Shown: positions 5,322-38,003 of the stretch, piece by piece | Position numbering within the stretch: the stretch's first letter is position 1 | Layout of the letters: every line of letters begins with the position of its first letter | Sequence record: NZ_CP135254.1 | Source of the DNA: a plasmid | Length of the DNA: 64,000 nucleotides | Direction: 5' to 3' (one strand) | Notes under the pieces: model-generated | Told to the model about the DNA's origin: nothing | The model's input: only the letters and a program-made list of their open reading frames with translations | The model's database searches: none | Position numbers and translations under genes: made by a program

Positions 5322-5330
5322 TCGTCGACC

Positions 5331-9046: not shown

Positions 9047-9056
9047 TCAAGCTTCC

Positions 9057-11934: not shown

Positions 11935-11940
11935 ATCTAC

Positions 11941-12960: not shown

Positions 12961-15116
12961 CAGTTGTCCTCCTTCTCAAGACTCAGCTCGAAAGTCATGC
13001 CATCGGGCAGCTTCTTGAGCAGTTCCTTGAGCTGCGCGCCGGTGGCGGCAGACACCTTGATTGAGACTTCTGCCACAGGCGTGGCCGGGCCAATACCCCA
13101 GCCTTCGAGCTTGCCGATCAGGTTTAGCGGCGAGGTTGGCGGGTTAGAGAGCGGGATGCGCGGTTTGGTGGTGCTGCTTGTGCCGCCACCAAAAATGTCA
13201 CCTCCATTCTGCGACGTACCGGTGCCGGGAGTGTTATCGCCACCAACAGGTGCGGGTGGTGTGGTCGTGCCACCGCCAAAGATATCGCCGCCCGATCCAT
13301 TATTGGGGGTGCCTGCAGGTGGCTGCGGCACGGGTGGAGTAGTGCCGCCAGTGGCAGGCACAGCCGAGGGTTCCATAAGGAACACTTCATCAAGCTGACG
13401 CCCGGTATAGGAGAGTTTGGGCCGCAAGCGCCGCCACGCAGATTCCTCGTCCTCGCCTGCGTGGGTTTGCAGATGCTCCAGATTACGCAGGTTGATGGCG
13501 ATCTTGCCGCGCGCGCACAGACGGAGGATGCGCTCCTTCATCGCAGTTTCGCCCAGCCAAGGGATGCAATCCTGGCCTGCCGGGCGTGGCTCCTGCAGTT
13601 CGCGCAGCAGCTTGCCGAGGGATGCGTTCTCAGATGCCGCTTCGAGCACGAGCTCTTCGAAGTCTTCGGGCACGAAGAGATCGTTGGTCAGCGTTTCCTC
13701 GATGCCCTCGGGAATTTGTGCACCTTGCTTTTTCAAGTGCTCGACACTGAATAGAGATTGCTGCGGGTTTTGGTGATCGTAGCGGTGCAAGACAGCGAAA
13801 CGGTCAAAGCGCTTCTTCAGGTTGTCACGCAGGGTGCCTTCGAACTCTTTGTGGAGCTTTTTGTATTCCGCCGGATTTGTGGAATTATGGCCGCTCCATT
13901 CCTGCGCCTTCATTTCAGCGCGCGCGAGGATGAGCAGATCGCGATCCAGGAATGCATTGGTGGAACCAGATCGGGGCAACAGGAAGCGAACTGTATTGCG
14001 GCGCTTTTGCAGGTGATCTTTGAGCCAACGGCCCAGTGTCTGATCGATTTTTTCCGGTTCTTCCGGCAGTACCAGGACAGGCAAACGGTCATCCCAGCGC
14101 TCTGGCTGCTCGGCTTCATCTAGTGATGTCCATGGGTCTGTCTGCCAAGATCTAGGCAGTGCAATCACGCGGAAATTTTTTGCGACCTCATCGCTGCCGC
14201 CGATGACATAGCGAGCCTGTTTGGCCAACTGTGCCAGATCGGAGCCATCGGTAAATAGCTTGTCGTTACGGGCACAAACCATCAATTTGGCACGAGGGTT
14301 TTCTTCCTCACGAAAGACCATACGCGGGCCATCCTGATGGATGTTGAAGCTGTTCTCGACAATCGTTGCCAGCTCGACCTGGAAAGCATTGCCATCCACA
14401 GGCTTGTTTCGAGTGATGTCCACCTGCAGCGTGGCGGGATCGGCTCCCGCGAGGTTGCCGACGGCAATCGACCGCAGCCACAGTGCCCCCACGATCTCTT
14501 GCAGGTGTGGTGCAAGGTTGGCGTGGTTGTATACCGCCTCGGTCACCGAGATGATGTTGTGCTGCGCTTTTTCTCGCAGGGTGCGATGGTGCTCATTAGA
14601 AACCGAATCCAGCAGTGCGCCGATGCCCGATGCATCGTCATCCAGCCGGAAGTCGGCGGCGGTGAGCACAGGCACGGCTTCGCCACGGCTCTTGTAAAGA
14701 TTAGCCAAGATGCGAATCATGTCGCGCGTTTCCTGCGCGTCAGTGGCGATCAGCACCTGTTCCTCAAGCAGACGTAACAGGTGCGGTGCATAAGGCCAAG
14801 ACTCGGTGAACTCGCGACGCTTGCGATCCTGCTCGGCGGGCGGCACATCAAGCAGGCGGAAGTATTCTGAGACGTGCTGGGCAACTAGTGATTCAATGGT
14901 GCCATCGGCAATCTGCAAGCGGTTGTCGAACAGACGGTGCAACAACATCCGGCGCCGATCCTGCTGTATACGCTCGGCATTACCCCCCGCCTTGAAGTCG
15001 ATGGCCACCGGGTTGACGCGGTGAACCTGCTGGTAGGCATCGCTGCCGCCATTGCGCACGGATATCACGAGCACCAACAAATCAGGGGTCGTCTCAGAAT
15101 TCGGAAAATAAAGCAC
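12960..15116 (-). CDS. Large uncharacterised protein (718 aa), first gene of the defence operon; no P-loop; low-complexity Gly/Thr/Pro tail with repeated GGDIFGGG
   Basis: ORF translation shows no Walker A motif, and its C-terminal 120 aa is a G/T/P-rich linker plus a small terminal domain. It may be a 5'-truncated or divergent BrxC/DUF499-class component, or a novel protein. Confidence 0.35.
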   Translation of the reverse strand: MLYFPNSETTPDLLVLVISVRNGGSDAYQQVHRVNPVAIDFKAGGNAERIQQDRRRMLLHRLFDNRLQIADGTIESLVAQHVSEYFRLLDVPPAEQDRKRREFTESWPYAPHLLRLLEEQVLIATDAQETRDMIRILANLYKSRGEAVPVLTAADFRLDDDASGIGALLDSVSNEHHRTLREKAQHNIISVTEAVYNHANLAPHLQEIVGALWLRSIAVGNLAGADPATLQVDITRNKPVDGNAFQVELATIVENSFNIHQDGPRMVFREEENPRAKLMVCARNDKLFTDGSDLAQLAKQARYVIGGSDEVAKNFRVIALPRSWQTDPWTSLDEAEQPERWDDRLPVLVLPEEPEKIDQTLGRWLKDHLQKRRNTVRFLLPRSGSTNAFLDRDLLILARAEMKAQEWSGHNSTNPAEYKKLHKEFEGTLRDNLKKRFDRFAVLHRYDHQNPQQSLFSVEHLKKQGAQIPEGIEETLTNDLFVPEDFEELVLEAASENASLGKLLRELQEPRPAGQDCIPWLGETAMKERILRLCARGKIAINLRNLEHLQTHAGEDEESAWRRLRPKLSYTGRQLDEVFLMEPSAVPATGGTTPPVPQPPAGTPNNGSGGDIFGGGTTTPPAPVGGDNTPGTGTSQNGGDIFGGGTSSTTKPRIPLSNPPTSPLNLIGKLEGWGIGPATPVAEVSIKVSAATGAQLKELLKKLPDGMTFELSLEKEDN

Positions 15117-16995: not shown

Positions 16996-17421
16996 ATGAT
17001 GCAAACAGAACTTAATCCCCTGATCTGCTCCCTGGTCGCCACCCCTCGCCGTATGGCTGCAATGCCCCGCTATGTAGGCCGTTTCTATGTGGTTTTCGAG
17101 TCGATGCTTTACCAGCAAATGAAAGGGCTCTGCCGCGAGTATCGCGGGGCTTATTGGCTTATGTGGGAGCTGTCGAACGGCGGCTTTTATATGGCTCCTG
17201 GGCGTCGTGATGAAATGCTGAACATCGAGGCCATGAACTACTTTAGTGGCCAAATGAGCGCCGATGCTGCCGGGATTACCGCTTGCCTCTACCTCTATAG
17301 CCATCTGTCATTTCACACAGAAGGCGCTGACCAGGAGCGGTTTTCAAGGCTGTATCACAGCTTGCGGGATTGGGCTTGTGAGCATGACGAAAAAGAGGCC
17401 ATCTTGGCCGCAATAGACTAG
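16996..17421 (+). CDS. klcA: KlcA/ArdB-family antirestriction protein
   Basis: 141 aa (MMQTELNPLICSLVATPRRMAAMPRYVGRFYVVFESMLYQ...ILAAID) matching the KlcA family pattern. It sits at the typical position next to KPC islands. Confidence 0.65.
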   Translation: MMQTELNPLICSLVATPRRMAAMPRYVGRFYVVFESMLYQQMKGLCREYRGAYWLMWELSNGGFYMAPGRRDEMLNIEAMNYFSGQMSADAAGITACLYLYSHLSFHTEGADQERFSRLYHSLRDWACEHDEKEAILAAID

Positions 17422-19280: not shown

Positions 19281-20162
19281 TTACTGCCCGTTGACGCCCA
19301 ATCCCTCGAGCGCGAGTCTAGCCGCAGCGGCGATGACGGCCTCGCTGTGCTTGTCATCCTTGTTAGGCGCCCGGGTGTAGACGGCCAACACAATAGGTGC
19401 GCGCCCAGTGGGCCAGACGACGGCATAGTCATTTGCCGTGCCATACACTCCGCAGGTTCCGGTTTTGTCTCCGACTGCCCAGTCTGCCGGCACCGCCGCG
19501 CGGATGCGGTGGTTGCCGGTCGTGTTTCCCTTTAGCCAATCAACAAACTGCTGCCGCTGCGGCGCAGCCAGTGCAGAGCCCAGTGTCAGTTTTTGTAAGC
19601 TTTCCGTCACGGCGCGCGGCGATGAGGTATCGCGCGCATCGCCTGGGATGGCGGAGTTCAGCTCCAGCTCCCAGCGGTCCAGACGGAACGTGGTATCGCC
19701 GATAGAGCGCATGAAGGCCGTCAGCCCGGCCGGGCCGCCCAACTCCTTCAGCAACAAATTGGCGGCGGCGTTATCACTGTATTGCACGGCGGCCGCGGAC
19801 AGCTCCGCCACCGTCATGCCTGTTGTCAGATATTTTTCCGAGATGGGTGACCACGGAACCAGCGCATTTTTGCCGTAACGGATGGGTGTGTCCAGCAAGC
19901 CGGCCTGCTGCTGGCTGCGAGCCAGCACAGCGGCAGCAAGAAAGCCCTTGAATGAGCTGCACAGTGGGAAGCGCTCCTCAGCGCGGTAACTTACAGTTGC
20001 GCCTGAGCCGGTATCCATCGCGTACACACCGATGGAGCCGCCAAAGTCCTGTTCGAGTTTAGCGAATGGTTCCGCGACGAGGTTGGTCAGCGCGGTGGCA
20101 GAAAAGCCAGCCAGCGGCCATGAGAGACAAGACAGCAGAACTAGACGGCGATACAGTGACAT
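19281..20162 (-). CDS. blaKPC-2: Class A carbapenemase KPC, with a KPC-2-type residue at position 272 (His)
   Basis: The translation matches KPC along its full length ([33 protein letters not shown]...[27 protein letters not shown]). His272 excludes KPC-3. The listed ORF begins one ATG upstream; the true start is the second Met. Confidence 0.93.
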
Positions 20163-21540: not shown

Positions 21541-22260
<720 letters not shown>

Positions 22261-25200
22261 ATGCCCGTTGACTTTCTGACCACTGAGCAGACTGAAAGCT
22301 ATGGCAGATTCACCGGTGAACCGGATGAGCTTCAGCTGGCACGATATTTTCACCTTGATGAAGCAGACAAGGAATTTATCGGAAAAAGCAGAGGTGATCA
22401 CAACCGTCTGGGCATTGCCCTGCAAATTGGATGTGTCCGTTTTCTGGGCACCTTCCTCACCGATATGAATCATATTCCTTCCGGCGTCCGGCATTTTACC
22501 GCCAGACAGCTCGGGATTCGTGATATCACCGTTCTTGCAGAATACGGTCAGAGGGAAAATACCCGCCGTGAGCATGCAGCGCTGATACGTCAGCACTATC
22601 AGTATCGTGAATTTGCCTGGCCCTGGACATTTCGCCTTACCCGTCTTTTATATACCCGGAGCTGGATAAGCAACGAACGTCCTGGCCTGCTTTTCGATCT
22701 GGCGACAGGGTGGCTTATGCAACATCGTATTATTCTCCCCGGAGCCACTACGCTGACCCGGTTGATTTCAGAGGTAAGGGAAAAGGCGACGTTGCGCCTG
22801 TGGAACAAACTGGCACTGATACCGTCAGCCGAACAGCGTTCACAGCTGGAGATGCTGCTGGGGCCAACTGATTGCAGCCGCCTGTCTTTACTGGAATCAC
22901 TGAAAAAGGGCCCTGTGACCATCAGTGGTCCGGCGTTTAATGAAGCAATTGAACGCTGGAAAACTCTGAACGATTTTGGCCTGCATGCTGAAAACCTGAG
23001 TACACTCCCGGCTGTGCGCCTGAAAAATCTCGCACGTTATGCTGGTATGACTTCGGTGTTCAATATTGCCAGGATGTCACCGCAGAAAAGGATGGCGGTT
23101 CTGGTTGCCTTTGTCCTTGCATGGGAAACGCTGGCGCTGGATGATGCATTGGACGTTCTGGACGCCATGCTGGCCGTTATCATCCGTGACGCCAGAAAGA
23201 TTGGGCAGAAAAAACGGCTCCGCTCGCTGAAGGATCTGGATAAATCTGCATTGGCGCTCGCCAGCGCATGTTCGTACCTGCTGAAAGAAGAAACACCGGA
23301 CGAATCGATTCGTGCTGAGGTGTTCAGCTACATCCCAAGGCAAAAGCTGGCTGAAATCATCACGCTTGTCCGTGAAATTGCCCGGCCCTCAGACGATAAT
23401 TTTCATGAAGAAATGGTGGAGCAGTACGGGCGCGTTCGTCGTTTCCTGCCCCATCTGCTGAATACCGTTAAATTTTCATCCGCACCTGCCGGGGTTACCA
23501 CTCTGAATGCCTGTGACTACCTCAGCCGGGAGTTCAGCTCACGGCGGCAGTTTTTTGACGACGCACCAACGGAAATTATCAGTCGGTCATGGAAACGGCT
23601 GGTGATTAACAAGGAAAAACATATCACCCGCAGGGGATACACGCTCTGCTTTCTCAGTAAACTGCAGGATAGTCTGAGGCGGAGGGATGTCTACGTTACC
23701 GGCAGTAACCGGTGGGGAGATCCTCGTGCAAGATTACTACAGGGTGCTGACTGGCAGGCAAACCGGATTAAGGTTTATCGTTCTTTGGGGCACCCGACAG
23801 ACCCGCAGGAAGCAATAAAATCTCTGGGTCATCAGCTTGATAGTCGTTACAGACAGGTTGCTGCACGTCTTTGCGAAAATGAGGCTGTCGAACTCGATGT
23901 TTCTGGCCCGAAGCCCCGGTTGACAATTTCTCCCCTCGCCAGTCTTGATGAGCCGGACAGTCTGAAACGACTGAGCAAAATGATCAGTGATCTACTCCCT
24001 CCGGTGGATTTAACGGAGTTGCTGCTCGAAATTAACGCCCATACCGGATTTGCTGATGAGTTTTTCCATGCTAGTGAAGCCAGTGCCAGAGTTGATGATC
24101 TGCCCGTCAGCATCAGCGCCGTGCTGATGGCTGAAGCCTGCAATATCGGTCTGGAACCACTGATCAGATCAAATGTTCCTGCACTGACCCGACACCGGCT
24201 GAACTGGACAAAAGCGAACTATCTGCGGGCTGAAACTATCACCAGCGCTAATGCCAGACTGGTTGATTTTCAGGCAACGCTGCCACTGGCACAGATATGG
24301 GGTGGAGGAGAAGTGGCATCTGCAGATGGAATGCGCTTTGTTACGCCAGTCAGAACAATCAATGCCGGACCGAACCGCAAATACTTTGGTAATAACAGAG
24401 GGATCACCTGGTACAACTTTGTGTCCGATCAGTATTCCGGCTTTCATGGCATCGTTATACCGGGGACGCTGAGGGACTCTATCTTTGTGCTGGAAGGTCT
24501 TCTGGAACAGGAGACCGGGCTGAATCCAACCGAAATTATGACCGATACAGCAGGTGCCAGCGAACTTGTCTTTGGCCTTTTCTGGCTGCTGGGATACCAG
24601 TTTTCTCCACGCCTGGCTGATGCCGGTGCTTCGGTTTTCTGGCGAATGGACCATGATGCCGACTATGGCGTGCTGAATGATATTGCCAGAGGGCAATCAG
24701 ATCCCCGAAAAATAGTCCTTCAGTGGGACGAAATGATCCGGACCGCTGGCTCCCTGAAGCTGGGCAAAGTACAGGTTTCAGTGCTGGTCCGTTCATTGCT
24801 GAAAAGTGAACGTCCTTCCGGACTGACTCAGGCAATCATTGAAGTGGGGCGCATCAACAAAACGCTGTATCTGCTTAATTATATTGATGATGAAGATTAC
24901 CGCCGGCGCATTCTGACCCAGCTTAATCGGGGAGAAAGTCGCCATGCCGTTGCCAGAGCCATCTGTCACGGTCAAAAAGGTGAGATAAGAAAACGATATA
25001 CCGACGGTCAGGAAGATCAACTGGGCACACTGGGGCTGGTCACTAACGCCGTCGTGTTATGGAACACTATTTATATGCAGGCAGCCCTGGATCATCTCCG
25101 GGCGCAGGGTGAAACACTGAATGATGAAGATATCGCACGCCTCTCCCCGCTTTGCCACGGACATATCAATATGCTCGGCCATTATTCCTTCACGCTGGCA

Positions 25201-25266
25201 GAACTGGTGACCAAAGGACATCTGAGACCATTAAAAGAGGCGTCAGAGGCAGAAAACGTTGCTTAA
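22261..25266 (+). CDS. tnpA: Tn3 transposase TnpA
   Basis: 1001-aa ORF starting MPVDFLTTEQTESYGRFTGEPDELQLARYFHLDEADKEF, the Tn3 TnpA N-terminus. The stop lies inside the terminal IR. Confidence 0.9.
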   Translation: MPVDFLTTEQTESYGRFTGEPDELQLARYFHLDEADKEFIGKSRGDHNRLGIALQIGCVRFLGTFLTDMNHIPSGVRHFTARQLGIRDITVLAEYGQRENTRREHAALIRQHYQYREFAWPWTFRLTRLLYTRSWISNERPGLLFDLATGWLMQHRIILPGATTLTRLISEVREKATLRLWNKLALIPSAEQRSQLEMLLGPTDCSRLSLLESLKKGPVTISGPAFNEAIERWKTLNDFGLHAENLSTLPAVRLKNLARYAGMTSVFNIARMSPQKRMAVLVAFVLAWETLALDDALDVLDAMLAVIIRDARKIGQKKRLRSLKDLDKSALALASACSYLLKEETPDESIRAEVFSYIPRQKLAEIITLVREIARPSDDNFHEEMVEQYGRVRRFLPHLLNTVKFSSAPAGVTTLNACDYLSREFSSRRQFFDDAPTEIISRSWKRLVINKEKHITRRGYTLCFLSKLQDSLRRRDVYVTGSNRWGDPRARLLQGADWQANRIKVYRSLGHPTDPQEAIKSLGHQLDSRYRQVAARLCENEAVELDVSGPKPRLTISPLASLDEPDSLKRLSKMISDLLPPVDLTELLLEINAHTGFADEFFHASEASARVDDLPVSISAVLMAEACNIGLEPLIRSNVPALTRHRLNWTKANYLRAETITSANARLVDFQATLPLAQIWGGGEVASADGMRFVTPVRTINAGPNRKYFGNNRGITWYNFVSDQYSGFHGIVIPGTLRDSIFVLEGLLEQETGLNPTEIMTDTAGASELVFGLFWLLGYQFSPRLADAGASVFWRMDHDADYGVLNDIARGQSDPRKIVLQWDEMIRTAGSLKLGKVQVSVLVRSLLKSERPSGLTQAIIEVGRINKTLYLLNYIDDEDYRRRILTQLNRGESRHAVARAICHGQKGEIRKRYTDGQEDQLGTLGLVTNAVVLWNTIYMQAALDHLRAQGETLNDEDIARLSPLCHGHINMLGHYSFTLAELVTKGHLRPLKEASEAENVA

Positions 25267-25299
25267 CGTGAGTTTTCGTTCCACTGAGCGTCAGACCCC
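25262..25299 (-). repeat. Tn3 38-bp terminal inverted repeat (tnpA-side end)
   Basis: Reverse complement of the Tn3 IR. Confidence 0.85.
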
Positions 25300-25305
25300 T
25301 TATCC

Positions 25306-25654
25306 CGAAGAGCTGTCCGTCGCCGGTAGCTATATTGAGGGCGCCACAAAATCCATCACCATCAACGCGTATGAACGCGACCCGGCCGCACGGCGGGCCT
25401 GTATCGCGTATCATGGTGCCGTCTGTCAGTGCTGCGGATTCGATTTTGAGAAAACCTGGGGTGAGCACGGGAAAGGATTTATCCACGTTCATCATATCCG
25501 GCCGCTGAGAACACTCGGACCTGACTATCAGATTGACCCGGTCAACGAGCTGGTCCCGTTGTGCCCGAACTGCCATGCCATGATTCATCGGGGCAATGAG
25601 GCAAAGCCGTTGTCCGTTGAGGAATTACGCGCCATGATGAGGCCCTCCGGCTGA
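25306..25654 (+). pseudogene. HNH endonuclease gene, 5'-truncated by the Tn3 insertion
   Basis: The reading frame continues out of the Tn3 IR into an HNH domain (CQCCGFDF...HVHHIRPL...LCPNCHAMIH). There is no independent start upstream, because the listed ORF begins inside the IR. Confidence 0.45.
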
Positions 25655-25691: not shown

Positions 25692-25970
25692 ATGCGCGTT
25701 GCTGAACATATCATCCTCGATGCCCTCACTCGCGGAGGATGCATCAAAACCTTCTGGCGTATATCGTCACGACAGGCCGCTGAATCGTCAGCACGGATAC
25801 CCGAGGGGTATATTCTGGAGTCACCCGGGGAGCGGGAAGATATCGTGCTCAGTCATGCAGACTTTCATGCGCTGGAGAAGCAGCTGGAGCAGAAGGAAAC
25901 GTGGGAGCAGGTGGTCGGCGTGACCTGTTTTGGTGGGGTAACCTGGCAGCTGAGAGCCGGGTCCGTGTGA
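25692..25970 (+). CDS. Hypothetical 92-aa protein
   Basis: ORF only. A degenerate copy of its 3' end occurs at about 36560-36680. Confidence 0.3.
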   Translation: MRVAEHIILDALTRGGCIKTFWRISSRQAAESSARIPEGYILESPGEREDIVLSHADFHALEKQLEQKETWEQVVGVTCFGGVTWQLRAGSV

Positions 25971-26286: not shown

Positions 26287-26899
26287 CGTGGCGCTGACAC
26301 ACAAAACAGGGCATCTGGCATGGTGCGCACTTGTCGCGCTGGCACTGGCCAGAAAGGAGCAGGGAGAGCTGTCTCCTGCACAGGAAAACCTTTTTCTCAC
26401 CCGCTGGCTGGCGACAGCGCTGAAACAGCGGCGATTTCCGCGCGATGTTACACCCGATATCGAATGGTTACTGAATCAGGGGCGTTTGCTGGGTGTGAGA
26501 GCAAAACTGGCCGACAAACTGGACTATGTCTGGCGCTCCTGCAGCGGCGAGCTGACTGAACAGAACGACATGTTCCGGCTGACGTATGCGCTGGAAACAG
26601 CGAAAGACATGGGCTGGAATTACCGCGTAATGAGCGACAGAGAATGGGCCGGGCGATATGCCTTGGTACTCAATCCTGGAGTAAACGGCGTTTATCTCTT
26701 ACGGACAAACCTCGATGCCGCTTTTGACGACAATGGCCAGCAGACAAATCCGCTGACAGCACGTCTGACAGGGAGCGTAGCAGGGGTAATGAAGCTGTTA
26801 AATCGCTGTGGCTGGCAGGCAGAGCCTGAGTCTGGTGCCTCCCTGCCCCACCAGTATTCACTGATGGCCGGACAGGGAGTGCCAGGAAAGGGGGATTAG
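26287..26899 (+). CDS. Hypothetical protein (about 204 aa, GTG start)
   Basis: An RBS-like aagggag lies 8 nt before the GTG. No recognisable domain. Confidence 0.35.
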
Positions 26900-27973: not shown

Positions 27974-28237
27974 TCATTCAGGGATGCCGGACAACTCACG
28001 TTTGCGAACAGAGCGATCATAATCTTCGGCTTTCACGAAAATCCTGATATTCGAACAAATTAATTCATTCATTCCATCTTTACTGTCCGTTTTCACACAC
28101 AATCCAGCCCAGAAGGGACCATTTGCAATGGCAGGATCTGTTGTGTCCGAAACGGAGTCGTAGAGTCGCGTTCCCAGAATAGTGAGTCCTGCAACGATTA
28201 CCGTATAAATTACCAGGGGTATCTTTTTTGTTTTCAT
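27974..28237 (-). CDS. Small secreted or membrane-anchored protein (87 aa) with a signal-peptide-like N-terminus
   Basis: MKTKKIPLVIYTVIVAGLTILG hydrophobic N-terminus. It is transcribed downstream of the resolvase gene. Confidence 0.3.
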   Translation of the reverse strand: MKTKKIPLVIYTVIVAGLTILGTRLYDSVSDTTDPAIANGPFWAGLCVKTDSKDGMNELICSNIRIFVKAEDYDRSVRKRELSGIPE

Positions 28238-28256
28238 CTTACTTCCTTTGTAAACG

Positions 28257-28877
28257 TTATTTATCAGCGCTGGAGCAGACCCGGATCACAGTCATTTTAG
28301 AAACGCCAGCCAGGCGAGCTGTTTCTCGCAGCGATTTTCCATTGACCAGGCGCAGAGTGCGAATCAGTTCGTGTTTCTGCGCATCGGCCACCCTGCCCCG
28401 GTATTTTCCTTCTGCTTTCGCCTTACTGATACCCTCTGACTGTCGACGTCGACGGTCTTCGTAATCTTTTCGGGCAATAGCGGCCAGCATATCCAGCATC
28501 ATGCCATTTACGGCCTTCAGCATGCTTCGGGTAAAGTCATCACTTACTGTGCTGGATAGCGCCAGATAGCTGGTCGGTAGATCAAGACTGACGATGGCCA
28601 GCTGCTTGTCTGTAATTTGCTTTCTGAGTGTCTCCCAGCCTGCATCATCCAGGCGAGTGAGCCTGTCGACCTGTTCAATGAGGATCACATCACCAGGTTC
28701 CGCATCACCAAGAAGCCTGATCAGTTCAGGGCGGTTCATTGTCGTACCGGAGACATTATCGATATACCAGCCAGCAATACGGTGGCCATGTTGGTTTGCA
28801 AACGCCTTCAGTACATTTTTTGCCCGGCTGGCATCCTGCTCTGAAGTGGATGCCCGGAGATACCCAAAAACGAACAT
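28257..28877 (-). CDS. Serine recombinase (resolvase/invertase family)
   Basis: Starts MFVFGYLRASTSEQ, with the catalytic Ser in YxRxSTxxQ. Length about 206 aa. Confidence 0.7.
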   Translation of the reverse strand: MFVFGYLRASTSEQDASRAKNVLKAFANQHGHRIAGWYIDNVSGTTMNRPELIRLLGDAEPGDVILIEQVDRLTRLDDAGWETLRKQITDKQLAIVSLDLPTSYLALSSTVSDDFTRSMLKAVNGMMLDMLAAIARKDYEDRRRRQSEGISKAKAEGKYRGRVADAQKHELIRTLRLVNGKSLRETARLAGVSKMTVIRVCSSADK

Positions 28878-29255
28878 TTTTTGTCCTGATGGTAACATTT
28901 AAGTGGTACTGCTCATCATGGTATCACTTAAGTAGTCACAATAAAATTACCCGGTATCTTTTTGGGTGGTACATATAAAGTATACTGGGCCGATTTTCTC
29001 CGCTTTATGCCATACCTGCCGAATTTTAAGCAGAATTCACGTAGCGTGATCGATTGTAAAGATCGCTTAACTCCCCTCTTAATAAATCTCATATCACTAT
29101 GTAAAGAAGCCATTTCCCGTTCCAAGCCTCACTTAAGGTGCTTTTTAGAAACAGCAGCTATCGATGGTTGGTACTGTTTAAATATCCAGATTAAACCTTT
29201 CCCTCTGGGTCAGATGAGTGATAAAGTTTCACCTATAAGACCCATTGGAGGCATT

Positions 29256-30689
29256 ATGTCTGAATTTGAATTACTGGCGCAGGATCTGCTTGAGAAAGCA
29301 GAGATAGACGAAAAGCTCCGGCAGGAAAATGATAAAAAGCTAATTGAGCAGGTGCTGGAAATCTATGATCAGAAGTACGTGGCCGAGTTACTTAGGAAAG
29401 TCGGCAAAAACGAGTGGACTCGCGAGACTCTTAATCGCTGGATTAATGGTAAGTGTTCACCTAAGTCGCTGACGTCAGCCGAAGAGGCTCTTCTGCGAAA
29501 AATGCTGCCGGAAGCGCCAGCGCATCACCCGGACTATGCTTTCCGGTTTATTGACCTGTTTGCCGGCATTGGCGGTATACGAAAAGGCTTTGAAGCCATC
29601 GGTGGCCAGTGCGTTTTTACCAGTGAATGGAATAAAGAGGCTGTGCGCACGTATAAAGCCAACTGGTTTAACGATGAGCAGGCACACACGTTTAATCTCG
29701 ATATCCGGGAAGTTACGCTCAGTGACAAACCTGAAGTACCAGAAACTGATGCCTATGCCTACATTGACGAGCATGTGCCGGATCATGATGTACTTCTGGC
29801 TGGTTTCCCTTGTCAGCCGTTCAGCCTTGCTGGCGTGAGTAAGAAAAACTCACTCGGCCGGGCGCACGGTTTCGAATGTGAAGCGCAGGGAACCCTTTTC
29901 TTTGATGTCGCGCGCATTATCCGCGCCAAAAAGCCGGCTGTCTTTGTGCTGGAAAACGTTAAAAACCTGAAGAGCCATGACAAGGGTAAAACCTTTAAAG
30001 TCATTATGGAGACCCTGGACGAGCTGGGTTATGAAGTGGCGGATGCGGCTGACATGGGCAAAAGCGATCCTAAAGTCATCGACGGAAAGCATTTCCTGCC
30101 TCAGCACCGTGAACGTATCGTGCTGGTTGGTTTCCGCCGCGATCTGAATATTCACCAGGGTTTTACCCTGCGGGATGTCAGTCGTTTTTATCCGGAACAG
30201 CGGCCGTCATTTGGCGAACTACTGGAGCCAGTGGTGGACAGCAAATATATCCTGACGCCAAAGCTCTGGGAGTACCTTTACAACTACGCCAAAAAGCACG
30301 CGGCTAAGGGGAACGGCTTCGGTTTTGGCCTGGTAAACCCTGAAAACAGGGAAAGCGTTGCCCGTACGCTTTCTGCCCGCTATCACAAAGACGGATCTGA
30401 AATTCTGATTGATCGTGGCTGGGATATGGCTACGGGTGAAACAGATTTCGCGAACGAAGAAAATCAGGCGCATCGGCCACGCAGGCTGACGCCGCGTGAG
30501 TGCGCGCGCCTCATGGGCTTCGAGAAGCCCGACGGCAGGCCTTTCCGTATTCCGGTGTCGGACACGCAGTCTTACCGTCAGTTCGGTAACTCCGTAGTGG
30601 TTCCTGTGTTTGAAGCGGTTGCGAGACTGCTGGAGCCTTACATTCTGAAAGCCGTTTCTGCCGGTGCTGGGAAGGTGGATAACATCTGA
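29256..30689 (+). CDS. ecoRIIM: DNA cytosine-5 methyltransferase, Dcm/M.EcoRII-like (CCWGG-type)
   Basis: 477 aa, collinear with E. coli Dcm and M.EcoRII ([38 protein letters not shown]..., [36 protein letters not shown]..., ENVKNL). An RBS ggagg precedes the ATG at 29256. The longer listed ORF from 28962 is an upstream extension. Confidence 0.8.
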
Positions 30690-30723
30690 GTGCACCTCCC
30701 GGCAGGGTATGCCGGGAGATTAT

Positions 30724-31932
30724 TTAAGCAAGATCGGCGTAAAGCCCTGTGAGCTCGGCAATAAAGGCGCCCAGCGTCATTAATTCTGCCCTTACCGCTT
30801 CCGGGTATTTTTTATGTATTGACGACGGCACGACCAGCCTGACCCCTTCCGCCTGCATTTCTCTGTACTGTGCCTGTGATACGCCCTCCTGCAGCGTAAA
30901 CAGATGAACCGGAGAAATTCTGTTGGCTTCATTCAGTATCTGGCGCCAGCGATCTTTGCAGGTGGTCTTAACTGCCAGCATACGCAGATTTTCTGCGGGA
31001 AATTCGGCGTCGTGGTAAGCCTCTGCGGAAGGGAAAAGGAAGTCAGGTTTTTTATTGCCCTCCGTAACTGCCTGCGTAGCAAAGTGCCGTAGCCCGTGCT
31101 CAATGAAGAGATGCTCCAGGTGCAGCTCCAGTGACTTTCCGGCCCGGGATTTACGACGATTACTGACAGAGTTGGCCAGCGCAATGAATTCATCCACGGA
31201 GCCAAATCCTTTCCGGATTATGTCCAGAACATGGAGTTCCTCAACCAACAGAAAAATGTCGTACTCGACGCGCCGACGGTCAATAAGCTGCTCATCCGGA
31301 TTAAGGGAATTTTTCACATAATGGCCGGCGGCATACTCAATAATTTCATTTCCGGACGGAAAGCGCTGCTGCCAGTCCTCCGGGATAGTGTATTTATGAT
31401 TAACGGGCATTTGCTGCAGAGACAGGCCGCCTAGGATTCGCCCGGCAGCCCCGGATATAAGCGTTCCGGGGATCACTTCACCAATAGCCGTCTCAATAAT
31501 GTCCTCTTCATCAGGGCTGACGCAGACCCAGATGTCGACAGCCGTACTGTCCCCGCCGTGCTCATTAAGCCTGAAAGCCAGAAGAGTCAGGGCTCCGGTA
31601 TTTTCAGGATCTTGAAGCGGGCTGCCTCTTCCCCAGCGTGTAATCCTCTTCTCGTTTCGGGTTTTACCAAAATGACGGCTGTTGTAATAAATTGCCCGGG
31701 CTTCGCTGTCCGGGCAGTCATGTGATGACACATGTGCTGTGATAAAGACTGAAGGGTTGAGCTCACGGGTATGGTTGATAGACGGAAATAGCTTCTCAAC
31801 GATACCAGAAGGGATATAAAGCCCGACCTGATGACCGCCTGTTGCGCCAGTGTCATTGGCGGAAAGGCGTTTAATGTAAACGAAGTAATTCCCGCCTGCG
31901 ATCTCAAGTAGCCAGTTATGAAAAGCCGACAT
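30724..31932 (-). CDS. ecoRIIR: EcoRII-like Type IIE restriction endonuclease
   Basis: 402-aa translation is near-collinear with R.EcoRII as recalled (MS.FHNWLLEIA..NYFVYIKRLSANDTGATGGHQVGLYIPSGIVEKLFPSINHTRELNPSVF...). It converges on the methylase gene, as in the EcoRII system. Confidence 0.8.
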   Translation of the reverse strand: MSAFHNWLLEIAGGNYFVYIKRLSANDTGATGGHQVGLYIPSGIVEKLFPSINHTRELNPSVFITAHVSSHDCPDSEARAIYYNSRHFGKTRNEKRITRWGRGSPLQDPENTGALTLLAFRLNEHGGDSTAVDIWVCVSPDEEDIIETAIGEVIPGTLISGAAGRILGGLSLQQMPVNHKYTIPEDWQQRFPSGNEIIEYAAGHYVKNSLNPDEQLIDRRRVEYDIFLLVEELHVLDIIRKGFGSVDEFIALANSVSNRRKSRAGKSLELHLEHLFIEHGLRHFATQAVTEGNKKPDFLFPSAEAYHDAEFPAENLRMLAVKTTCKDRWRQILNEANRISPVHLFTLQEGVSQAQYREMQAEGVRLVVPSSIHKKYPEAVRAELMTLGAFIAELTGLYADLA

Positions 31933-32245
31933 ACATATCCCTCTGTTGTCCTGAAATTCAACTCGTCATTTTTCCACAGTCAGACAGAAGCTGCTAGGAA
32001 GGCTTTTGTAGATGCTCTGCCTGCAGCTGAAACCGACTGTAATCAGAAAAAAGAAAAGTATCCTTCTGGGCTCCTACGGCTCGCCAGATTCTGATGGTGC
32101 AATGCAAGGTCAAATCCTGCAGCTGGCTAAAGTCCGCTATGAGCGAACAGCGGACGTTGGACTTCCCAACCTTACAAGGTAATCTAGTTTGCAAAGTTAG
32201 CGACCTCGCGCAGCCGCACTAATAAAAAGAATAGGAACGGTACAA

Positions 32246-34999
32246 ATGAACTGGATTGGTTCTCGGTGGTGGAAATTCGACTTCCATAATCACACTCCGG
32301 CATCGGACGATTATGGAAAAGGCCCTAATCAGGCCCAGTATATGCAGATCACTCATAAAGATTGGCTGCTCAACTACATGCGACAAGGCATCGATTGTGT
32401 CGCTGTCACGGACCATAATTCAGGCGCTTGGATTGATCCGCTCAAGCATGCACTCAAGGAACTGGCATCTGAGAGTCATGAAGATTATCGACCACTCTAC
32501 TTATTCCCTGGTGTTGAGCTTACTGTTCAGGGGAATATCCATATTCTGGCCATTTTCGGAGAAGACAAGACAACCTCTGATATCGACTCACTGCTTGGTG
32601 CGGTCAGGTATCGCGCCACCAAAGGAAAGAGCGACGGCTGCTCTGAATGCTCGGCAGTTGAGGTGATCGACGAAATTGCTAGGTCAGGAGGGCTTGCAAT
32701 ACCTGCTCATGTAGATCAGGTTAGCGGACTTTTTACGGTCTGTACGGGCAACACACTAGAGCAGGTGCTTGACAACAAATGTGTTTTTGCTATGGAGGTA
32801 ACGGACCTTGCTAAAGCAAAACCGCAGCTCTACATTAGCAAGAATTTGAATTGGGCAGAGATTCTTGGAACCGATTCCCATCATCCGTCCGGTACCGGAA
32901 ATCAACGCTATCCGGGTAGCCATTTCACTTGGGTAAAAATGTCGGAGCCATCTTATGACGGATTACGGCTGGCGCTCATTGATGGTGCTCTTTCACTGAA
33001 GCGGTCGGACAACTTCACTGGTGACCCCAATATCCATGGACAACTTGCCATCGAAAGTATCGTGGTTGATGATGCGAAGTACTTAGGGCGAGGGCAATCT
33101 TTATCTTGTCAACTGAACCCCTGGCTCAACACTATCATTGGTGGACGAGGCACTGGGAAATCGACATCGTTGGAATTCCTGCGGATTGCTCTTAAACGAA
33201 AGGGAGAAATCCCCAAGAGCCTTGAAAAGGAATTTACCAAATACAGTCAAACTTCGAAAGACCGCCAAGATGAAGGGCTGTTAAAAGATTCCACGAAAAT
33301 AACTGTAGGCTTTCGAAAAGACGGTGGCCGTTTCCGAATCACCTGGTCTAATACCGACGACATATACAGCATCGAGGAAGAGACCGCTCCCGGAGTCTGG
33401 TGTGCTTCCGAGGGAGACATAGCACAACGATTTCCTGTCAGGATTTACAGCCAGAAACAGATATTCGAATTGGCAAAGCATCCCCAAGCACTCTTGCAAG
33501 TTGTCGATGATGCCGCGGTGGTCAATCATCGTGATTGGCAGCTTAAGTGGGATGAACTGGTTTCCAAATATTTCTCGCTTCGCGCCCAAGAGCGTGAAGT
33601 TCAGACCGGGCTTCAGGAGGAATCGGTAACCAAAGGTCAGCTTGAAGACGTCAAACGCAAACTCGATGTTTTTGAAAAGGCGGGCCACGCGGATGTCCTT
33701 AAGGCTTACCAACTCAGACAGAACCAGAGTAAGGCTATGGACTCTTGGGTAACGACTTGGGAGGGTTCCGCCGAACAGGTCCGAGATATTTCTGGAAGAC
33801 TGCTGCCAGCAGAATTGGATCTACAATATTTCGACATTGGGAATGCGGATGACAAAGAACTCTTCGATACCATCAAGGGCATCCGTGCGACGTTTGAGAA
33901 GCTTCAGACAGAGATGAACTCGATCGCGCAGCGGATTGATGATGTAAAGAACTCATGGAATCAAACTCGGTCAGACTTGGGAATATCGAAAAGAATTACA
34001 GCGGCGAGCCATGAATACACCGGCCTCCTCGGTCAACTCAGCGCAGCAGACGCAGGTGATCCATCTGCATATGGTGTTCTGGTTAAGCAGCGACAAGATT
34101 TCGAAGATAAGCTCAAGGGATTCGACAAAAAGAGAGAAACTCTTGCGCAGCATCAGAAGAGCGCGGAAGAATACTTGGTCAAGCTCCATGAGCATCGAGC
34201 ATTGATAACCAAGCTCCGTGAGGACTTTCTCAAGGATACCCTCGTCGGCAATTCATATGTACAGATCAATGTCATTCCGTTTGGAAACAAGCTTACGGTT
34301 GAGGAAGAATTCCGTAACCTGATCGGCCGCAGTAGTGGCGGATTTGACCGCGACATTGGAGTTGTTGACGGGGATGAGGGCTTGCTGGCTTATTTAACGC
34401 AAGACCAATCCAATACTATGGATGATAAAATTGAGAAAATAAAATCATCGCTACTTGCAATCCATGAAAACGATACTGTGGCGGTGGATTCCTGCAAAGA
34501 TCGACGTTTTGTATCCCACATTCAGGGGCTAACTCCGGAACAGATAGATCGAATTCAGTGCTGGTTTCCTGGTGATTCTCTGGATATCAGATATAGCCTC
34601 AAGAACGGCGAGAGTTTCAAACCCGTAGAGCAAGGATCTCCGGGGCAAAAAACGGCGGCTCTCCTTGCATTTATCCTTTCATATGGCAATGAGCCTCTTA
34701 TACTTGATCAGCCTGAGGATGATCTTGATAACCACTTGATCTATGATCTGATCGTAACGCAATTGCGTGAGATCAAACAAAAACGGCAGGTTTTAGTAGT
34801 CACGCACAACGCTAACATCGTCGTGAATGGTGATGCGGAAAACGTCATTGCCCTTGATATTCGGTCTGGCCAAACCAGAATTGTGACGCAAGGGGGTCTT
34901 CAAGAACCTTCCATACGCGATGAGATATGCAGAGTGATGGAAGGTGGCAGAGAGGCCTTTACCCAAAGATATAAACGAATCAATGCAGCAATCACATAG
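32246..34999 (+). CDS. PHP-domain phosphoesterase fused to an SMC/ABC-type ATPase (Ppl-like single-gene defence candidate)
   Basis: 917 aa. The N-terminus carries PHP motifs (FDFHNHTPASDDYG, VAVTDHN, AHVD). The central part has Walker A GGRGTGKST and coiled-coil-like segments. The C-terminus has a signature/Walker B LILDQPEDDLD and VLVVTHNANIV. Confidence 0.65.
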   Translation: MNWIGSRWWKFDFHNHTPASDDYGKGPNQAQYMQITHKDWLLNYMRQGIDCVAVTDHNSGAWIDPLKHALKELASESHEDYRPLYLFPGVELTVQGNIHILAIFGEDKTTSDIDSLLGAVRYRATKGKSDGCSECSAVEVIDEIARSGGLAIPAHVDQVSGLFTVCTGNTLEQVLDNKCVFAMEVTDLAKAKPQLYISKNLNWAEILGTDSHHPSGTGNQRYPGSHFTWVKMSEPSYDGLRLALIDGALSLKRSDNFTGDPNIHGQLAIESIVVDDAKYLGRGQSLSCQLNPWLNTIIGGRGTGKSTSLEFLRIALKRKGEIPKSLEKEFTKYSQTSKDRQDEGLLKDSTKITVGFRKDGGRFRITWSNTDDIYSIEEETAPGVWCASEGDIAQRFPVRIYSQKQIFELAKHPQALLQVVDDAAVVNHRDWQLKWDELVSKYFSLRAQEREVQTGLQEESVTKGQLEDVKRKLDVFEKAGHADVLKAYQLRQNQSKAMDSWVTTWEGSAEQVRDISGRLLPAELDLQYFDIGNADDKELFDTIKGIRATFEKLQTEMNSIAQRIDDVKNSWNQTRSDLGISKRITAASHEYTGLLGQLSAADAGDPSAYGVLVKQRQDFEDKLKGFDKKRETLAQHQKSAEEYLVKLHEHRALITKLREDFLKDTLVGNSYVQINVIPFGNKLTVEEEFRNLIGRSSGGFDRDIGVVDGDEGLLAYLTQDQSNTMDDKIEKIKSSLLAIHENDTVAVDSCKDRRFVSHIQGLTPEQIDRIQCWFPGDSLDIRYSLKNGESFKPVEQGSPGQKTAALLAFILSYGNEPLILDQPEDDLDNHLIYDLIVTQLREIKQKRQVLVVTHNANIVVNGDAENVIALDIRSGQTRIVTQGGLQEPSIRDEICRVMEGGREAFTQRYKRINAAIT

Positions 35000-35104
35000 A
35001 ACGGAGTTGCACTTGAACGGCAATTGCGCTGAGCTCAATTGCCGCCAATGCTTGGTCGTTAATGTCTGCTCCTGGCACAAAGCAGACATACTCAGAAAAG
35101 CAAC

Positions 35105-35701
35105 TCATGAACGAGCATCAGCGTCCTCCATTATCGCTTTCACTCTTAAAATGGTCTGCCGTGTGGTGTCAAATTCGCGGGCGATCGCGCTGATACTCTT
35201 CCCTTCACTAAGACGCAAGAACACCGCTTTCTTTTGTTCGTCATCCAGAGCCGGCGGGCGGCCGAAACGCTTTCCGGATGCCTTAGCCCGCGCAATACCA
35301 GCATGTGTACGTTCAAGTAGCAGATCGCGCTCAAATTCAGCAACCGCCGAGATTACCTGCATTGTCATCTTTCCGGCCGGACTGGTGAGGTCTACCCCTC
35401 CCAGCGCCAGGCAGTGTACCCGTATTTCTGACGCAGAAAGTAGCTCAACGGTTTTTCTGATATCCATGGCGTTTCGCCCGAGGCGATCCAGCTTCGTTAC
35501 GATTAAAACGTCCCCGTTTTCCATTCGATCAAGGAGACGCATAAATCCAGGGCGTTCAGCAGCCGCGACTGAACCACTTATGTACTCTTCAATCAGTCGC
35601 TGGGGTCTGATGGAAAAGCCGGCCGCTTCGATCTCACGACGCTGGTTTTCAGTGTTCTGTTCGAGGGTCGATACCCTGCAGTAGGCAAAAACTCGTGACA
35701 T
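35105..35701 (-). CDS. Serine recombinase (resolvase)
   Basis: [15 protein letters not shown]...DRLGRN...; 198 aa with a C-terminal HTH. Confidence 0.75.
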
Positions 35702-35704
35702 ATA

Positions 35705-35830
35705 GTTATTTTATGTACGAAATGGATGTACTTATTATAGCGCATGTCCGAAACTAAAAACACTAACTTTCGGACATACTATATCTTACATGTACGAAAC
35801 CGGTCGGTTTTGTACATCCCATATTGTATG
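35705..35830. promoter_or_regulatory. Probable res/crossover site for the adjacent resolvase
   Basis: Repeated dyad elements (atgtacgaaa...tttgtacat; tgtccgaaa...tttcggaca) immediately upstream of the resolvase gene. Confidence 0.45.
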
Positions 35831-35953
35831 CTCTATGTGTTCCACTTAAAGTAATATTATTGTGACCACATAAGTTGTGGCTGGCTGGCAAAGTCAGCAC
35901 TGAATGCCTCCCTGCCCAACCAGTTTATATTGGTATCCGATTTTTCTACTTGC

Positions 35954-36472
35954 CTATTTTCTTTTGGCCGGAAACATCAGCATCAGGGTGTGAACACCGT
36001 TGATATCGATCGTATGGGCGCCTTCCGTGAAAGCCTCAAAAATCCCGACGTCTTTCAGACCGCCCAGTATCGCATCGACGTCAGTTTCTGACAGCTGACG
36101 CGCTGTTTTGTATTCCAACATGTTAGTGTTAGGGTTCGATGCGCGCTCAGACTCGACTTTCATTTTAATTTCGGCAATGACCGCAGGAATATTATCGGTG
36201 TTGAGCTCCAGTGCTCTAGCCTGAATACACGCGGCAAACTCCTTGGGGATTACAAACCACACGGGATATCCCCGCGACAGCGGCATACCTTTACTACCCT
36301 CATCCAGATTACCATTCCAGCGTATGCCGGTACATTCGCTGAAGGGCTGGTTCAGTTCGTCCCGGTAGTTAATGCGGGCGACGGACACGTCCCATTCGCC
36401 CGCATCGTAAAGCACATCTAGCACCTCTACATGGCCTCTGGGGGATAAAACATCTGTGGGTTTTACGTACAT
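35954..36472 (-). CDS. Hypothetical protein (172 aa)
   Basis: ORF with RBS aggaga 6 nt before the ATG (MYVKPTDV...). No recognisable domain. Confidence 0.35.
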   Translation of the reverse strand: MYVKPTDVLSPRGHVEVLDVLYDAGEWDVSVARINYRDELNQPFSECTGIRWNGNLDEGSKGMPLSRGYPVWFVIPKEFAACIQARALELNTDNIPAVIAEIKMKVESERASNPNTNMLEYKTARQLSETDVDAILGGLKDVGIFEAFTEGAHTIDINGVHTLMLMFPAKRK

Positions 36473-37179
36473 ATTCTCTCTCCTGTAAGCGTGGATGATA
36501 TACAAATTAGCTATGAATTATAGTTATATTACATAACTAGTTTTTTAGCTAGAATTAATCAGTTGAACGTGAAAAAATTGTCCTCAGCTATGCCAACTAC
36601 CATGCTCTGGAGAAGCAGAAGGGAGCCCGGGAGCAGGTTATCGGGGGAGCCAGTACTGGCTGCGCGACCTAGCAGCTCAGAATGGAGCGAGAACAGTAAA
36701 TAGGGGTCTATTTGGATATCGAAAATTATTCAGCCGAGATACGTCTGGTGAGCAGAGTCTCTTAAATGTAAAGCTAGAGCCTTTCAATAATATAAAGGTT
36801 CATTCATCAAAAAATTAGAAACAGTGCCGACAGTAATGCCTATACATAAGCCCGTAGATCGCGTCTGCCAGTCACTCTGGGATATACCCTAATGTGTCAG
36901 GCTAACGCGCCCTCCAGGCTTGTCCAGCCCCTCGCTTTTCCGAGCTGACTCGCGGTTTCGATTTAACACGGTGGTGGAATAGCCAAGCATGGTAGAGGTC
37001 GTGATCTAACGATTGATTGCACAAGGCACAGGATATCGGCTGAAATGTACCGCCTGGCAATTGATGCTTCATAGAACTATTCATCCGTAAACAGAGTCGC
37101 TAATGCGGCTTTTTTTTGGGGGGACGTTTAGTAGCGGAGGTTTCTATGTCAGGACAAGTCAGGTCGCCTTAGTTACTCA

Positions 37180-37360
37180 ATAAATGAAATCATGTTATAA
37201 TTAAATCATGATTTCATTTATTTTTATGCTATTGTAATTTAAGTCATTATTGTTTTGCATGTTTTACTGAAATCATTAAATCATGATTTAATGTTGTTCC
37301 TTTACCTCAGCTATGTCATAGTTAGCTTAGTTGTAGAACTTGATAATGAAATCATGATTT
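37180..37360. repeat. Centromere-like repeat array (AAATCATGATTTCAT / AAATCATGATTTAAT dyads) upstream of the ParA-like gene
   Basis: At least four copies of a palindromic ATCATGAT-core motif within 180 bp. Confidence 0.5.
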
Positions 37361-37376
37361 AATGAAGGGTGATACC

Positions 37377-38003
37377 ATGGGAAAGGTTATATCGATCGTT
37401 GGTCAGAAAGGCGGTGGTTCAAAAAGCACCGAAGCTAGAACGCTTGCTGTTGGATTTTCAGAAGCTGGATGGAAGACGCATCTGGCTGATATAGACACCA
37501 AACAACAAACCTCACTGAAGTGGACAGAACGACGCGAGAAAAGTGGGCTAAGCCCGATAGATTGTGCTCTTTACCGCCGGGTTGAAACTGCTGTCAGGAT
37601 GAAAGATAGCTGTCATTTGCTGATCATCGATGGGCGCCCTGCAGCAGAGACAACGTCACTGGATGTCGCAGATGAATCTGACCTCGTCATTATTACCACG
37701 GGGACTACTATTGATGATCTTGAACCCTCACTTGAACTGGCTCGTGAATTGATAAAGAAGGGGATTGATAAGAGCAAGATTGTCTTTATCGTTTCTAAAT
37801 CACCATCTCAATCGCAGGGCGAAAAAGCTCAGGAAACAATCAAAGCGTGGGGTTATAAAGTAATCAATACAGTCATCCCCTTCAAAACCAGTTACGGCGA
37901 AGCTCTTGATACTGGACGGGCATTACATGAAACGCCATTCAAATCGTTGAATGAGACTGCAAAACAAATGATTGAAGAGATTCATGATATAATTAATTCA
38001 TGA
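37377..38003 (+). CDS. parA: Small ParA/ParF-type partition ATPase
   Basis: Deviant Walker A GQKGGGSKST. About 208 aa. Confidence 0.7.
   Translation: MGKVISIVGQKGGGSKSTEARTLAVGFSEAGWKTHLADIDTKQQTSLKWTERREKSGLSPIDCALYRRVETAVRMKDSCHLLIIDGRPAAETTSLDVADESDLVIITTGTTIDDLEPSLELARELIKKGIDKSKIVFIVSKSPSQSQGEKAQETIKAWGYKVINTVIPFKTSYGEALDTGRALHETPFKSLNETAKQMIEEIHDIINS

Follow-up and report, generated by a model that had tools for sequence, protein, structure and literature searches.

The closest described relatives of the locus analysed here are the EcoRII restriction-modification (R-M) system of IncN and other enterobacterial plasmids, the single-gene anti-phage system Ppl (PMC12904381), and two kinds of serine recombinases, the γδ/Tn3 resolvases and the Sin/Bin3-type resolvases with a two-subsite res. 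The tested Escherichia coli Ppl is a 3′-5′ single-stranded DNA (ssDNA) exonuclease that is triggered by 3′-OH ends and whose inhibition by NTPs is lifted by phage-induced nucleotide depletion (reviewed in PMC12904381), and M.EcoRII, the methyltransferase of the EcoRII system, binds its own promoter (cited in PMC3874152 as its reference 169). Relatives of these systems lie side by side in the first 64,000 nt (hereafter the window) of plasmid record NZ_CP135254.1, a 142-kb conjugative IncFII-type KPC-2 plasmid, where the genes of two small serine recombinases (res1 and res2) flank those of an EcoRII-type methyltransferase (M), its cognate endonuclease (R) and a 917-aa Ppl-like protein. The plasmid family carries the KPC-2 carbapenemase through Klebsiella, Enterobacter and Raoultella. 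Our analysis indicates that this block is probably a composite maintenance and defence islet in the IncFII KPC-2 backbone that was assembled by recombination at res sites, and not a self-contained resolvase cassette.

All component kinds are known already and are named by automatic annotation. The gene arrangement was also known earlier: serC (serine recombinase), ecoRII, pinE (the res2 of this work), parA and umuCD were described, without analysis of the arrangement, as 'maintenance' genes of one plasmid of the IncFII(pKPC2_EC14653) group (PMC11783820). What is modestly new is the exact position of the cargo, in the crossover core of a backbone resolvase that is widespread, and the past exchange of its flanks at two different res sites. 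The region 28000–36000 is found with 100% identity and at the same coordinates in Klebsiella pneumoniae pKP18-2110-2-2 (NZ_CP084988.1) and ∼20 other plasmids. Profile matches and sequence identities bore out the genes named in an initial annotation of the window (an EcoRII-like R-M pair, a Ppl-like PHP-ATPase and two serine recombinases), and all five genes are intact, with coordinates that match the first reading or differ from it by a few bases. Comparison with relatives placed the right edge of the inserted DNA at 36887 and not at 35830. The features of the locus are collected in Table 1.

The boundaries of the inserted DNA are apparent from plasmids in which the site is empty. In one of them (L006), the backbone is 99.97% identical to the window up to position 28985 and then continues as GTATAC-CCCAATGTGACA...GGCTGACGCGCCC... 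into parA and umuCD; genes for the R-M pair, Ppl and res2 are all absent from the locus. Homology with L006 and with a second such plasmid, L008, stops exactly after the GTATAC at 28985, and the right flank of the empty site resumes at window position 36883 as ATAC-CCTAATGTGTCAGGCTAACGCGCCC..., which aligns with GTATAC-CCCAATGTGACA...GGCTGACGCGCCC...GGCTTGTCCAACCC of L006 and L008. Alignment of the sites shows a crossover dyad, TGGTACAT-N15-ATGTGACA, whose centre is the palindrome GTATAC. The resumption of the L006 right flank at 36883 therefore places 7.9 kb of DNA (28986–36887) inside the crossover site of res1.

The same seam is used in other replicons. In a Rep_3 replicon (L003) and an IncR-typed plasmid (L007), a unit that extends from TGGGCCGATTTTC via M-R, cargo, res2 and its res plus 95 bp lies inside the canonical site, with TATAC on both sides. 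In L007, res1 and its site are diverged to the left of the core (∼73–87% at the nucleotide level) and M-R, immediately on its right, is 99.5% identical; four unrelated genes, including betT, fill the slot between R and res2, which contains no Ppl gene. Some 430 Salmonella plasmids share only the sequence that starts at the core. The order res1...M-R...res2 recurs on several different replicon backgrounds.

The islet is composed of three independently circulating units, the R-M pair, the Ppl/TrlF gene, and res2 with its res. The EcoRII system found in ∼2000 plasmids, where its surroundings are unrelated, has 86% nucleotide identity to the R-M unit (29174–31976). The 2.95-kb Ppl unit is found alone, with 98% nucleotide and 97% amino acid identity, at a prophage end in 13 E. 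coli chromosomes, and alone also in E. coli plasmid record p4D31-5; in avian pathogenic E. coli (APEC) O78 (L011 9114–13861), the Ppl/TrlF gene is located at the end of a tailed prophage beside paoABCD, 1.4 kb from a Pin-type invertase gene and tail-fibre genes. Only 41 PLSDB records carry this Ppl gene. These units occupy the res1 crossover site, with res1 on one side and the partition operon on the other. In the assembly that we propose, the block would have arrived and been passed among IncFII, IncR and Rep_3 replicons by recombination at two seams, the GTATAC core of the res1 site and the centre of site I of res2, with ordinary deletion, inversion and insertion sequence (IS) events contributing as well. 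The junctions provide a concrete, testable case of res sites as seams for swapping maintenance and defence modules between plasmid backbones.

Table 1. Features of the islet and of the sites that bound it (window coordinates)
Feature	Position	Strand	Basis or content
res1, small serine recombinase	28257–28877	−	Pfam Resolvase 4.4e-24
res1-type site, proximal part	28884–28985	+	accessory dyad, AT-rich spacer, left crossover half and central GTATAC
res1 accessory dyad, TTAAGTGGTAC-N11-GTATCACTTAA	28899–28931	+	repeat search
res1 crossover left half and GTATAC	28964–28985	+	alignment of relatives
Left-end spacer of inserted DNA, begins TGGGCCGATTTTC	28986–29173	+	found only with this R-M variant; common to L003 and L007
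Imperfect dyad just upstream of M start codon	29206–29244	+	inverted repeat
M, C5-cytosine methyltransferase of M.EcoRII/Dcm family, 477 aa	29256–30689	+	Pfam DNA_methylase 1.2e-78 and DNA_meth_N
GC-rich hairpin between convergent M and R	30696–30718		9-bp stem, 7 G-C pairs
R, EcoRII-family Type IIE restriction endonuclease, 402 aa	30724–31932	−	convergent with M; Pfam EcoRII-N 2.8e-61, EcoRII-C 1.8e-72
Ppl/TrlF unit	32129–35079	+	gene 32246–34999 (+), 917 aa
res2, small serine recombinase with HTH_7	35105–35701	−	Pfam Resolvase 4.4e-38, HTH_7 2.1e-11
res site of res2	35713–35817	+	site I, 28-bp dyad 35790–35817; site II, 34-bp dyad 35744–35777
Segment Y	35826–36887		carries orf183; ends at GTAT/ATAC cores
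Second res1-type site copy, inverted, partly deleted (left half, core, part of accessory region)	35828–35875	−	25-nt inverted repeat, 88%
orf183	35954–36505	−	no family match
Core and right half, ATAC-CCTAATGTGTCA, of split res1 crossover site	36883–36899	+	leads into the right flank seen in empty-site plasmids

res1 is the backbone resolvase beside the partition operon of many (>1000) IncF-type plasmids and is not cargo. This follows from the synteny in L006, L016 and L017, which share the order DUF2913-Rpn-small hypothetical open reading frame (ORF)-res1-site-parAB-umuCD, and from the ∼1200 PLSDB records that match the res1 region. An identical res1 protein (WP_020314642.1) is encoded in L004, L005, L006 and L014. 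Residues R8 and S10 of res1 are in register with those of γδ resolvase, and its closest solved relative is Sin/Bin3 (2r0q; 2e-11). The repeats upstream of res1 are of the AAGTGGTAC type, unlike those of res2, and the layout of the site is conserved in L008, L016, L017 and L018, with alleles that are 85–100% identical. As judged only from this conservation and from the junctions, the site appears to consist of one accessory and one crossover dyad with an AT-rich spacer between them, similar to the two-subsite res of Sin/Bin3-type resolvases, although these are distant from res1 in sequence.

Other genes are found near res1 homologues in related plasmids. In pKpQIL-10 (L019 4009–7615), a transposase gene of the Tn5403 family abuts the res1 homologue, and homology to the site ends inside the accessory dyad, at the equivalent of window position 28931. 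In pA1759-KPC (L018 1–4740), a different TrlF-family gene and a GNAT/DUF1778 toxin-antitoxin pair are located within a few kb of the res1 homologue. Defence and addiction genes may accumulate around res1 in further plasmids as well.

res2 is related to Gin (2.5e-27) and to γδ/Tn3 resolvase (∼1e-23) among solved structures. The dyad-rich, res-like site that had been noticed near its gene is real: the motif ATGTMCGAAA occurs four times in the window, always within 35713–35799, where 0.3 copies are expected, and none of 100 shuffled sequences reached four. Similar to γδ/Tn3 resolvases, res2 combines a catalytic domain with HTH_7 and has a site I and a site II upstream of its own gene, whose dyads (28 and 34 bp) have the sizes of γδ res sites I and II; a proximal half-site or possible site III is located at 35713–35737. 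The spacer between sites I and II is 12 bp, in contrast to 22 bp in γδ res. Also unlike the γδ/Tn3 systems, res2 has no linked Tn3-family transposase or terminal repeats and adjoins par in the plasmid backbone. No tnpA or inverted repeat was found around it, and the nearest tnpA (22261–25266) has its own tnpR (21541–22098). Neither resolvase comes from an unrelated neighbouring transposon, an origin that had initially been considered.

In the IncFII(pBK30683)-type plasmid L020, the order is DUF2913-Rpn-res2-like-res-orf183-parA(MipZ)-umuCD, and a res2-type resolvase (gene ∼74% identical to res2 at the nucleotide level) holds the backbone position that is held by res1 elsewhere. The half-sites of res2 are kept and the spacers are diverged in the relatives from L020 and pWLK-101716 (L005). 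The res2 region is identical between plasmids up to the centre of site I, from which the right halves and flanks differ: the right half is TTTTGTACAT in the window, L014 (pKPC2-EC14653) and L020, TTTGGTACAG in L003 and L007, and TTTCGTACAC in L005. In L005 (12860–14244), TTTCGTACAC leads into a mirror-image res with another resolvase gene behind it, so that the two genes are head-to-head and share a hybrid site I with site II dyads on both sides. L014 is collinear with the pBK30683-type backbone rightwards from res2 site I (96.6%), whereas the res2 genes of L014 and L020 are only ∼74% identical. Flanks that switch at the centre of site I are the pattern expected of resolvase-mediated exchange there, and hybrid sites joined at this point are a further likeness to γδ/Tn3 resolvases. 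res2 with its own res probably resolves plasmid multimers, which may matter here since the crossover site of res1 is split.

Segment Y, between res2 site I and the right edge of the inserted DNA, has an orientation in the window that is opposite to that in pKPC2-EC14653 (L014), p9_SCLZS62 (L004) and the pBK30683-type backbone (L020). Among the first 30 matching records, 21 have the orientation of the window and nine have matches ending at 35829; L014, the only one of these nine that was examined, has Y inverted. The inverted res1-type copy at the left end of Y is fuller in L014 (50 of 60 positions identical to 28926–28985), and L015 contains a complete inverted site. The Y of the window is 99.5% identical to that of pVA32-105 and 97.6% identical to that of L014. 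We rejected the idea that Y is a switch flipped by res2, as its endpoints are 22–25 bp outside res2 site I, at res1-type cores, and the 2.4% difference between the orientation classes also speaks against an active invertible switch. Y looks like a past exchange. Within Y, 35876–35939 and 36565–36681 are diverged copies (71–89%) of the 3′ end of the DUF2913 gene (26807–26870) and of a small ORF (25830–25955); their sequence suggests that they were left behind by a second backbone copy of the hyp-DUF2913 region.

Several points weigh against our interpretation of the locus. The right half of the hybrid site, from 28986, is unlike a canonical half-site, so simple exchange between res sites cannot explain every junction, and the TATAC that flanks the insert at either end may instead have arisen by duplication of a 5-bp target. 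The orientation classes of Y differ by 2.4% in sequence, and the 'inversion' may be a replacement from another plasmid. The recombinase behind each junction, res1 or res2, was deduced from sequence. The annotation of PLSDB is incomplete. Finally, the 917-aa protein scores 626 bits against the equivalog model of the tested Ppl (NF042955, Ppl_antiphage), below the cut-off of 1000, which makes its Ppl activity an extrapolation.

Among the other explanations, the one that survives best, although we consider it unlikely, is integration of a small circle (RIGHT_E-M-R-cargo-res2-res, ∼7–9 kb) by res1 into its own crossover site, in the manner of an integrase acting on att sites, so that the circle shuttles defence genes. 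In L003 and L007, the unit indeed interrupts a canonical site I precisely and has a copy of the core at either end. All copies have the same left end, TGGGCCGATTTTC, with a cargo slot that varies, and in pKPC2-EC14653 a pair of directly oriented res1-type sites encloses the block. However, no good res1 half-sites are present at the deduced junction of such a circle, the left-end spacer accompanies this R-M variant exclusively (∼55 records) with no wider element family, and two backbone types fused at site I of res2 would explain the arrangement in pKPC2-EC14653 equally well. The broader proposal, which we regard as doubtful, is that the GTATAC core of the res1-type site, present in >1000 IncF-type plasmids, is a capture point at which small res2-bearing circles with defence or addiction genes integrate and exchange; if this were true, serine-resolvase res sites would constitute a cassette-acquisition system for plasmid defence cargo.

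A transposon-like insertion into the res site, by a 'res hunter' or a Tn3-family element that duplicated the 5 bp TATAC, is very improbable. The Tn5053/Tn402 family is known to target res sites, and TATAC, which empty sites contain only once, flanks the insert at both ends. However, the segment 28986–36887 contains no transposase gene, no terminal inverted repeats were found around the block, the right end varies between configurations while the left end is constant, and the endpoints of the inversion use the same core.

The resolvase-delimited, mobilisable cassette of the initial annotation, in which the two flanking resolvases would jointly delimit and mobilise a discrete cassette via matching res sites at both ends, deserves hardly any credence: both edges of the block are resolvase crossover sites, as had been claimed, and the gene order recurs on several replicons, but res1 and res2 are only 30% identical, the ATGTMCGAAA repeats and the 28-bp site I occur in the 64 kb only next to res2 (the same repeats had been sought beside the first resolvase, whose site is built from others), the res1 gene is outside the exchanged segment and belongs to the backbone, and the window has only one more res1-type site, which is inverted and has lost part of its sequence, leaving no pair of sites in direct repeat, so that two unrelated resolvases with unrelated sites cannot excise a cassette together. 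Assembly of the islet from separate units by recombination at res sites is the interpretation that we retain below.

The R-M pair is similar to EcoRII of IncN and other enterobacterial plasmids in having convergent M and R genes in a unit of ∼2.8 kb, both R domains at full length, and an M with a Dcm-type core and an N-terminal regulatory domain. M passes NCBIfam PRK10458 (DNA cytosine methylase; 934 bits, cut-off 710), has 94% amino acid identity to the M.EcoRII-type protein of an IncN plasmid, and retains the catalytic GFPCQPFS (PCQ cysteine) and QHRER motifs; a 575-aa ORF that starts at 28962 is an over-extended version of it. R has 89% amino acid identity to the IncN enzyme and aligns with the R.EcoRII structure 1na6 over residues 1–401 of its 402 (phmmer 8e-248), so it is not truncated. 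The segments KSLELH, KKPDFLF, AVKTT and ILNEA, around the catalytic PD-(D/E)XK residues of R.EcoRII, which we take to be E271, D299, K324 and E337, are identical in this alignment. The RefSeq start of R is an ATA codon at 31938, and the ATG at 31932 is the likelier start. The hairpin between the two genes is likely a bidirectional terminator. By analogy with M.EcoRII, the dyad upstream of M is possibly an operator, a candidate for autoregulation of M through its N-terminal domain. In contrast to the ∼2000 near-identical IncN-type copies, the pair in the window is a distinct allele, and it adjoins res1 rather than an IncN backbone or an integron. The left-end spacer (28986–29173) is absent from IncN EcoRII loci, whose homology begins at 29174.

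Judging from sequence identity, the pair should methylate and restrict CCWGG like EcoRII. M would methylate CCWGG, and R would cut only unmethylated sites, for which a second CCWGG would need to be bound by the N-terminal effector domain before the C-terminal PD-(D/E)XK domain cuts. The window contains 170 CCWGG sites (135–150 expected) and shows no avoidance, so the plasmid itself depends on methylation. Chromosomal dcm and CCWGG methylation were reported in all 14 of the 14 K. pneumoniae strains surveyed (PMC9684165), and post-segregational killing by EcoRII is attenuated by chromosomal Dcm (PMC3874152). In its usual host, the methylation pattern is therefore left unchanged by the plasmid, contrary to the initial proposal that the plasmid imposes Dcm-type methylation there. 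Restriction would then hit only DNA from dcm-negative sources, and chromosomal dcm limits the effects that had been envisaged.

The 917-aa protein is, like Ppl, a single polypeptide with an N-terminal PHP phosphoesterase and an ABC/SMC-like ATPase, in which a long insert separates Walker A from Walker B. It matches the PADLOC Ppl model from end to end (3.7e-156, residues 4–912 on model positions 3–892 of 894). The discovery of Ppl as a single-gene system is reportedly due to Gao et al. 2020. Residues 7–250 form a PHP-type domain of the CehA/McbA kind, and the translation shows the HxH, E, H and DxH metal-binding motifs, Walker A GGRGTGKST and Walker B ILDQPEDD. Unlike Ppl, the protein belongs to the NCBIfam TrlF family of AAA-like ATPases (TrlF_fam_ATP; 641 bits, cut-off 350) and not to the Ppl equivalog. 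Its best 120 protein homologues are all TrlF-named or unnamed, a distant blastn search for the tested E. coli Ppl gene retrieved the same TrlF lineage only, and the search of solved structures gave a single weak match, to ABC-F. In the literature, the name TrlF yielded only unrelated uses of the string, and no experimental test of the TrlF subfamily was found. By analogy, the protein would combine a PHP 3′-5′ exonuclease with an SMC-like NTPase and would be switched on as in the tested E. coli Ppl; we infer that this mechanism may extend to the TrlF subfamily, including an anti-phage effect in Klebsiella.

TrlF proteins of Acidithiobacillus, Dethiosulfovibrio, Sphaerochaeta and Prosthecochloris (P0093, P0107, P0116 and P0120) are 83–85% identical to the plasmid protein over ∼917 residues. 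Such unusually high conservation across phyla suggests recent and wide horizontal transfer. A plasmid-borne Ppl-like nuclease together with an EcoRII-type system could change phage susceptibility, which is relevant to phage therapy and plasmid ecology, and the same systems could affect plasmid stability and the uptake of DNA from dcm-negative donors.

Elsewhere in the window, a larger second defence island (2514–15077, minus strand) encodes an SNF2 helicase that matches BrxH/HmaA/DrmD models, a DUF1156-type methyltransferase (HmaB/PglX-like), a HerA-SIR2 pair, and DUF499 and two unassigned ORFs. An antirestriction gene (16996–17421) is located near blaKPC-2 (19281–20162), ISKpn27 and the Tn3-family tnpR/tnpA genes (21541–25266). 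An HNH endonuclease gene is cut by the Tn3-type terminal repeat at ∼25282–25308 and is 387 bp long in the window, compared with 732 bp in L004, L006 and L014. To the right of the islet, several direct and inverted copies of ATTAAATCATGATTTAAT are present at 37179–37366, directly upstream of a small parA (37377–38003), and these repeats are probably a partition site or operator.

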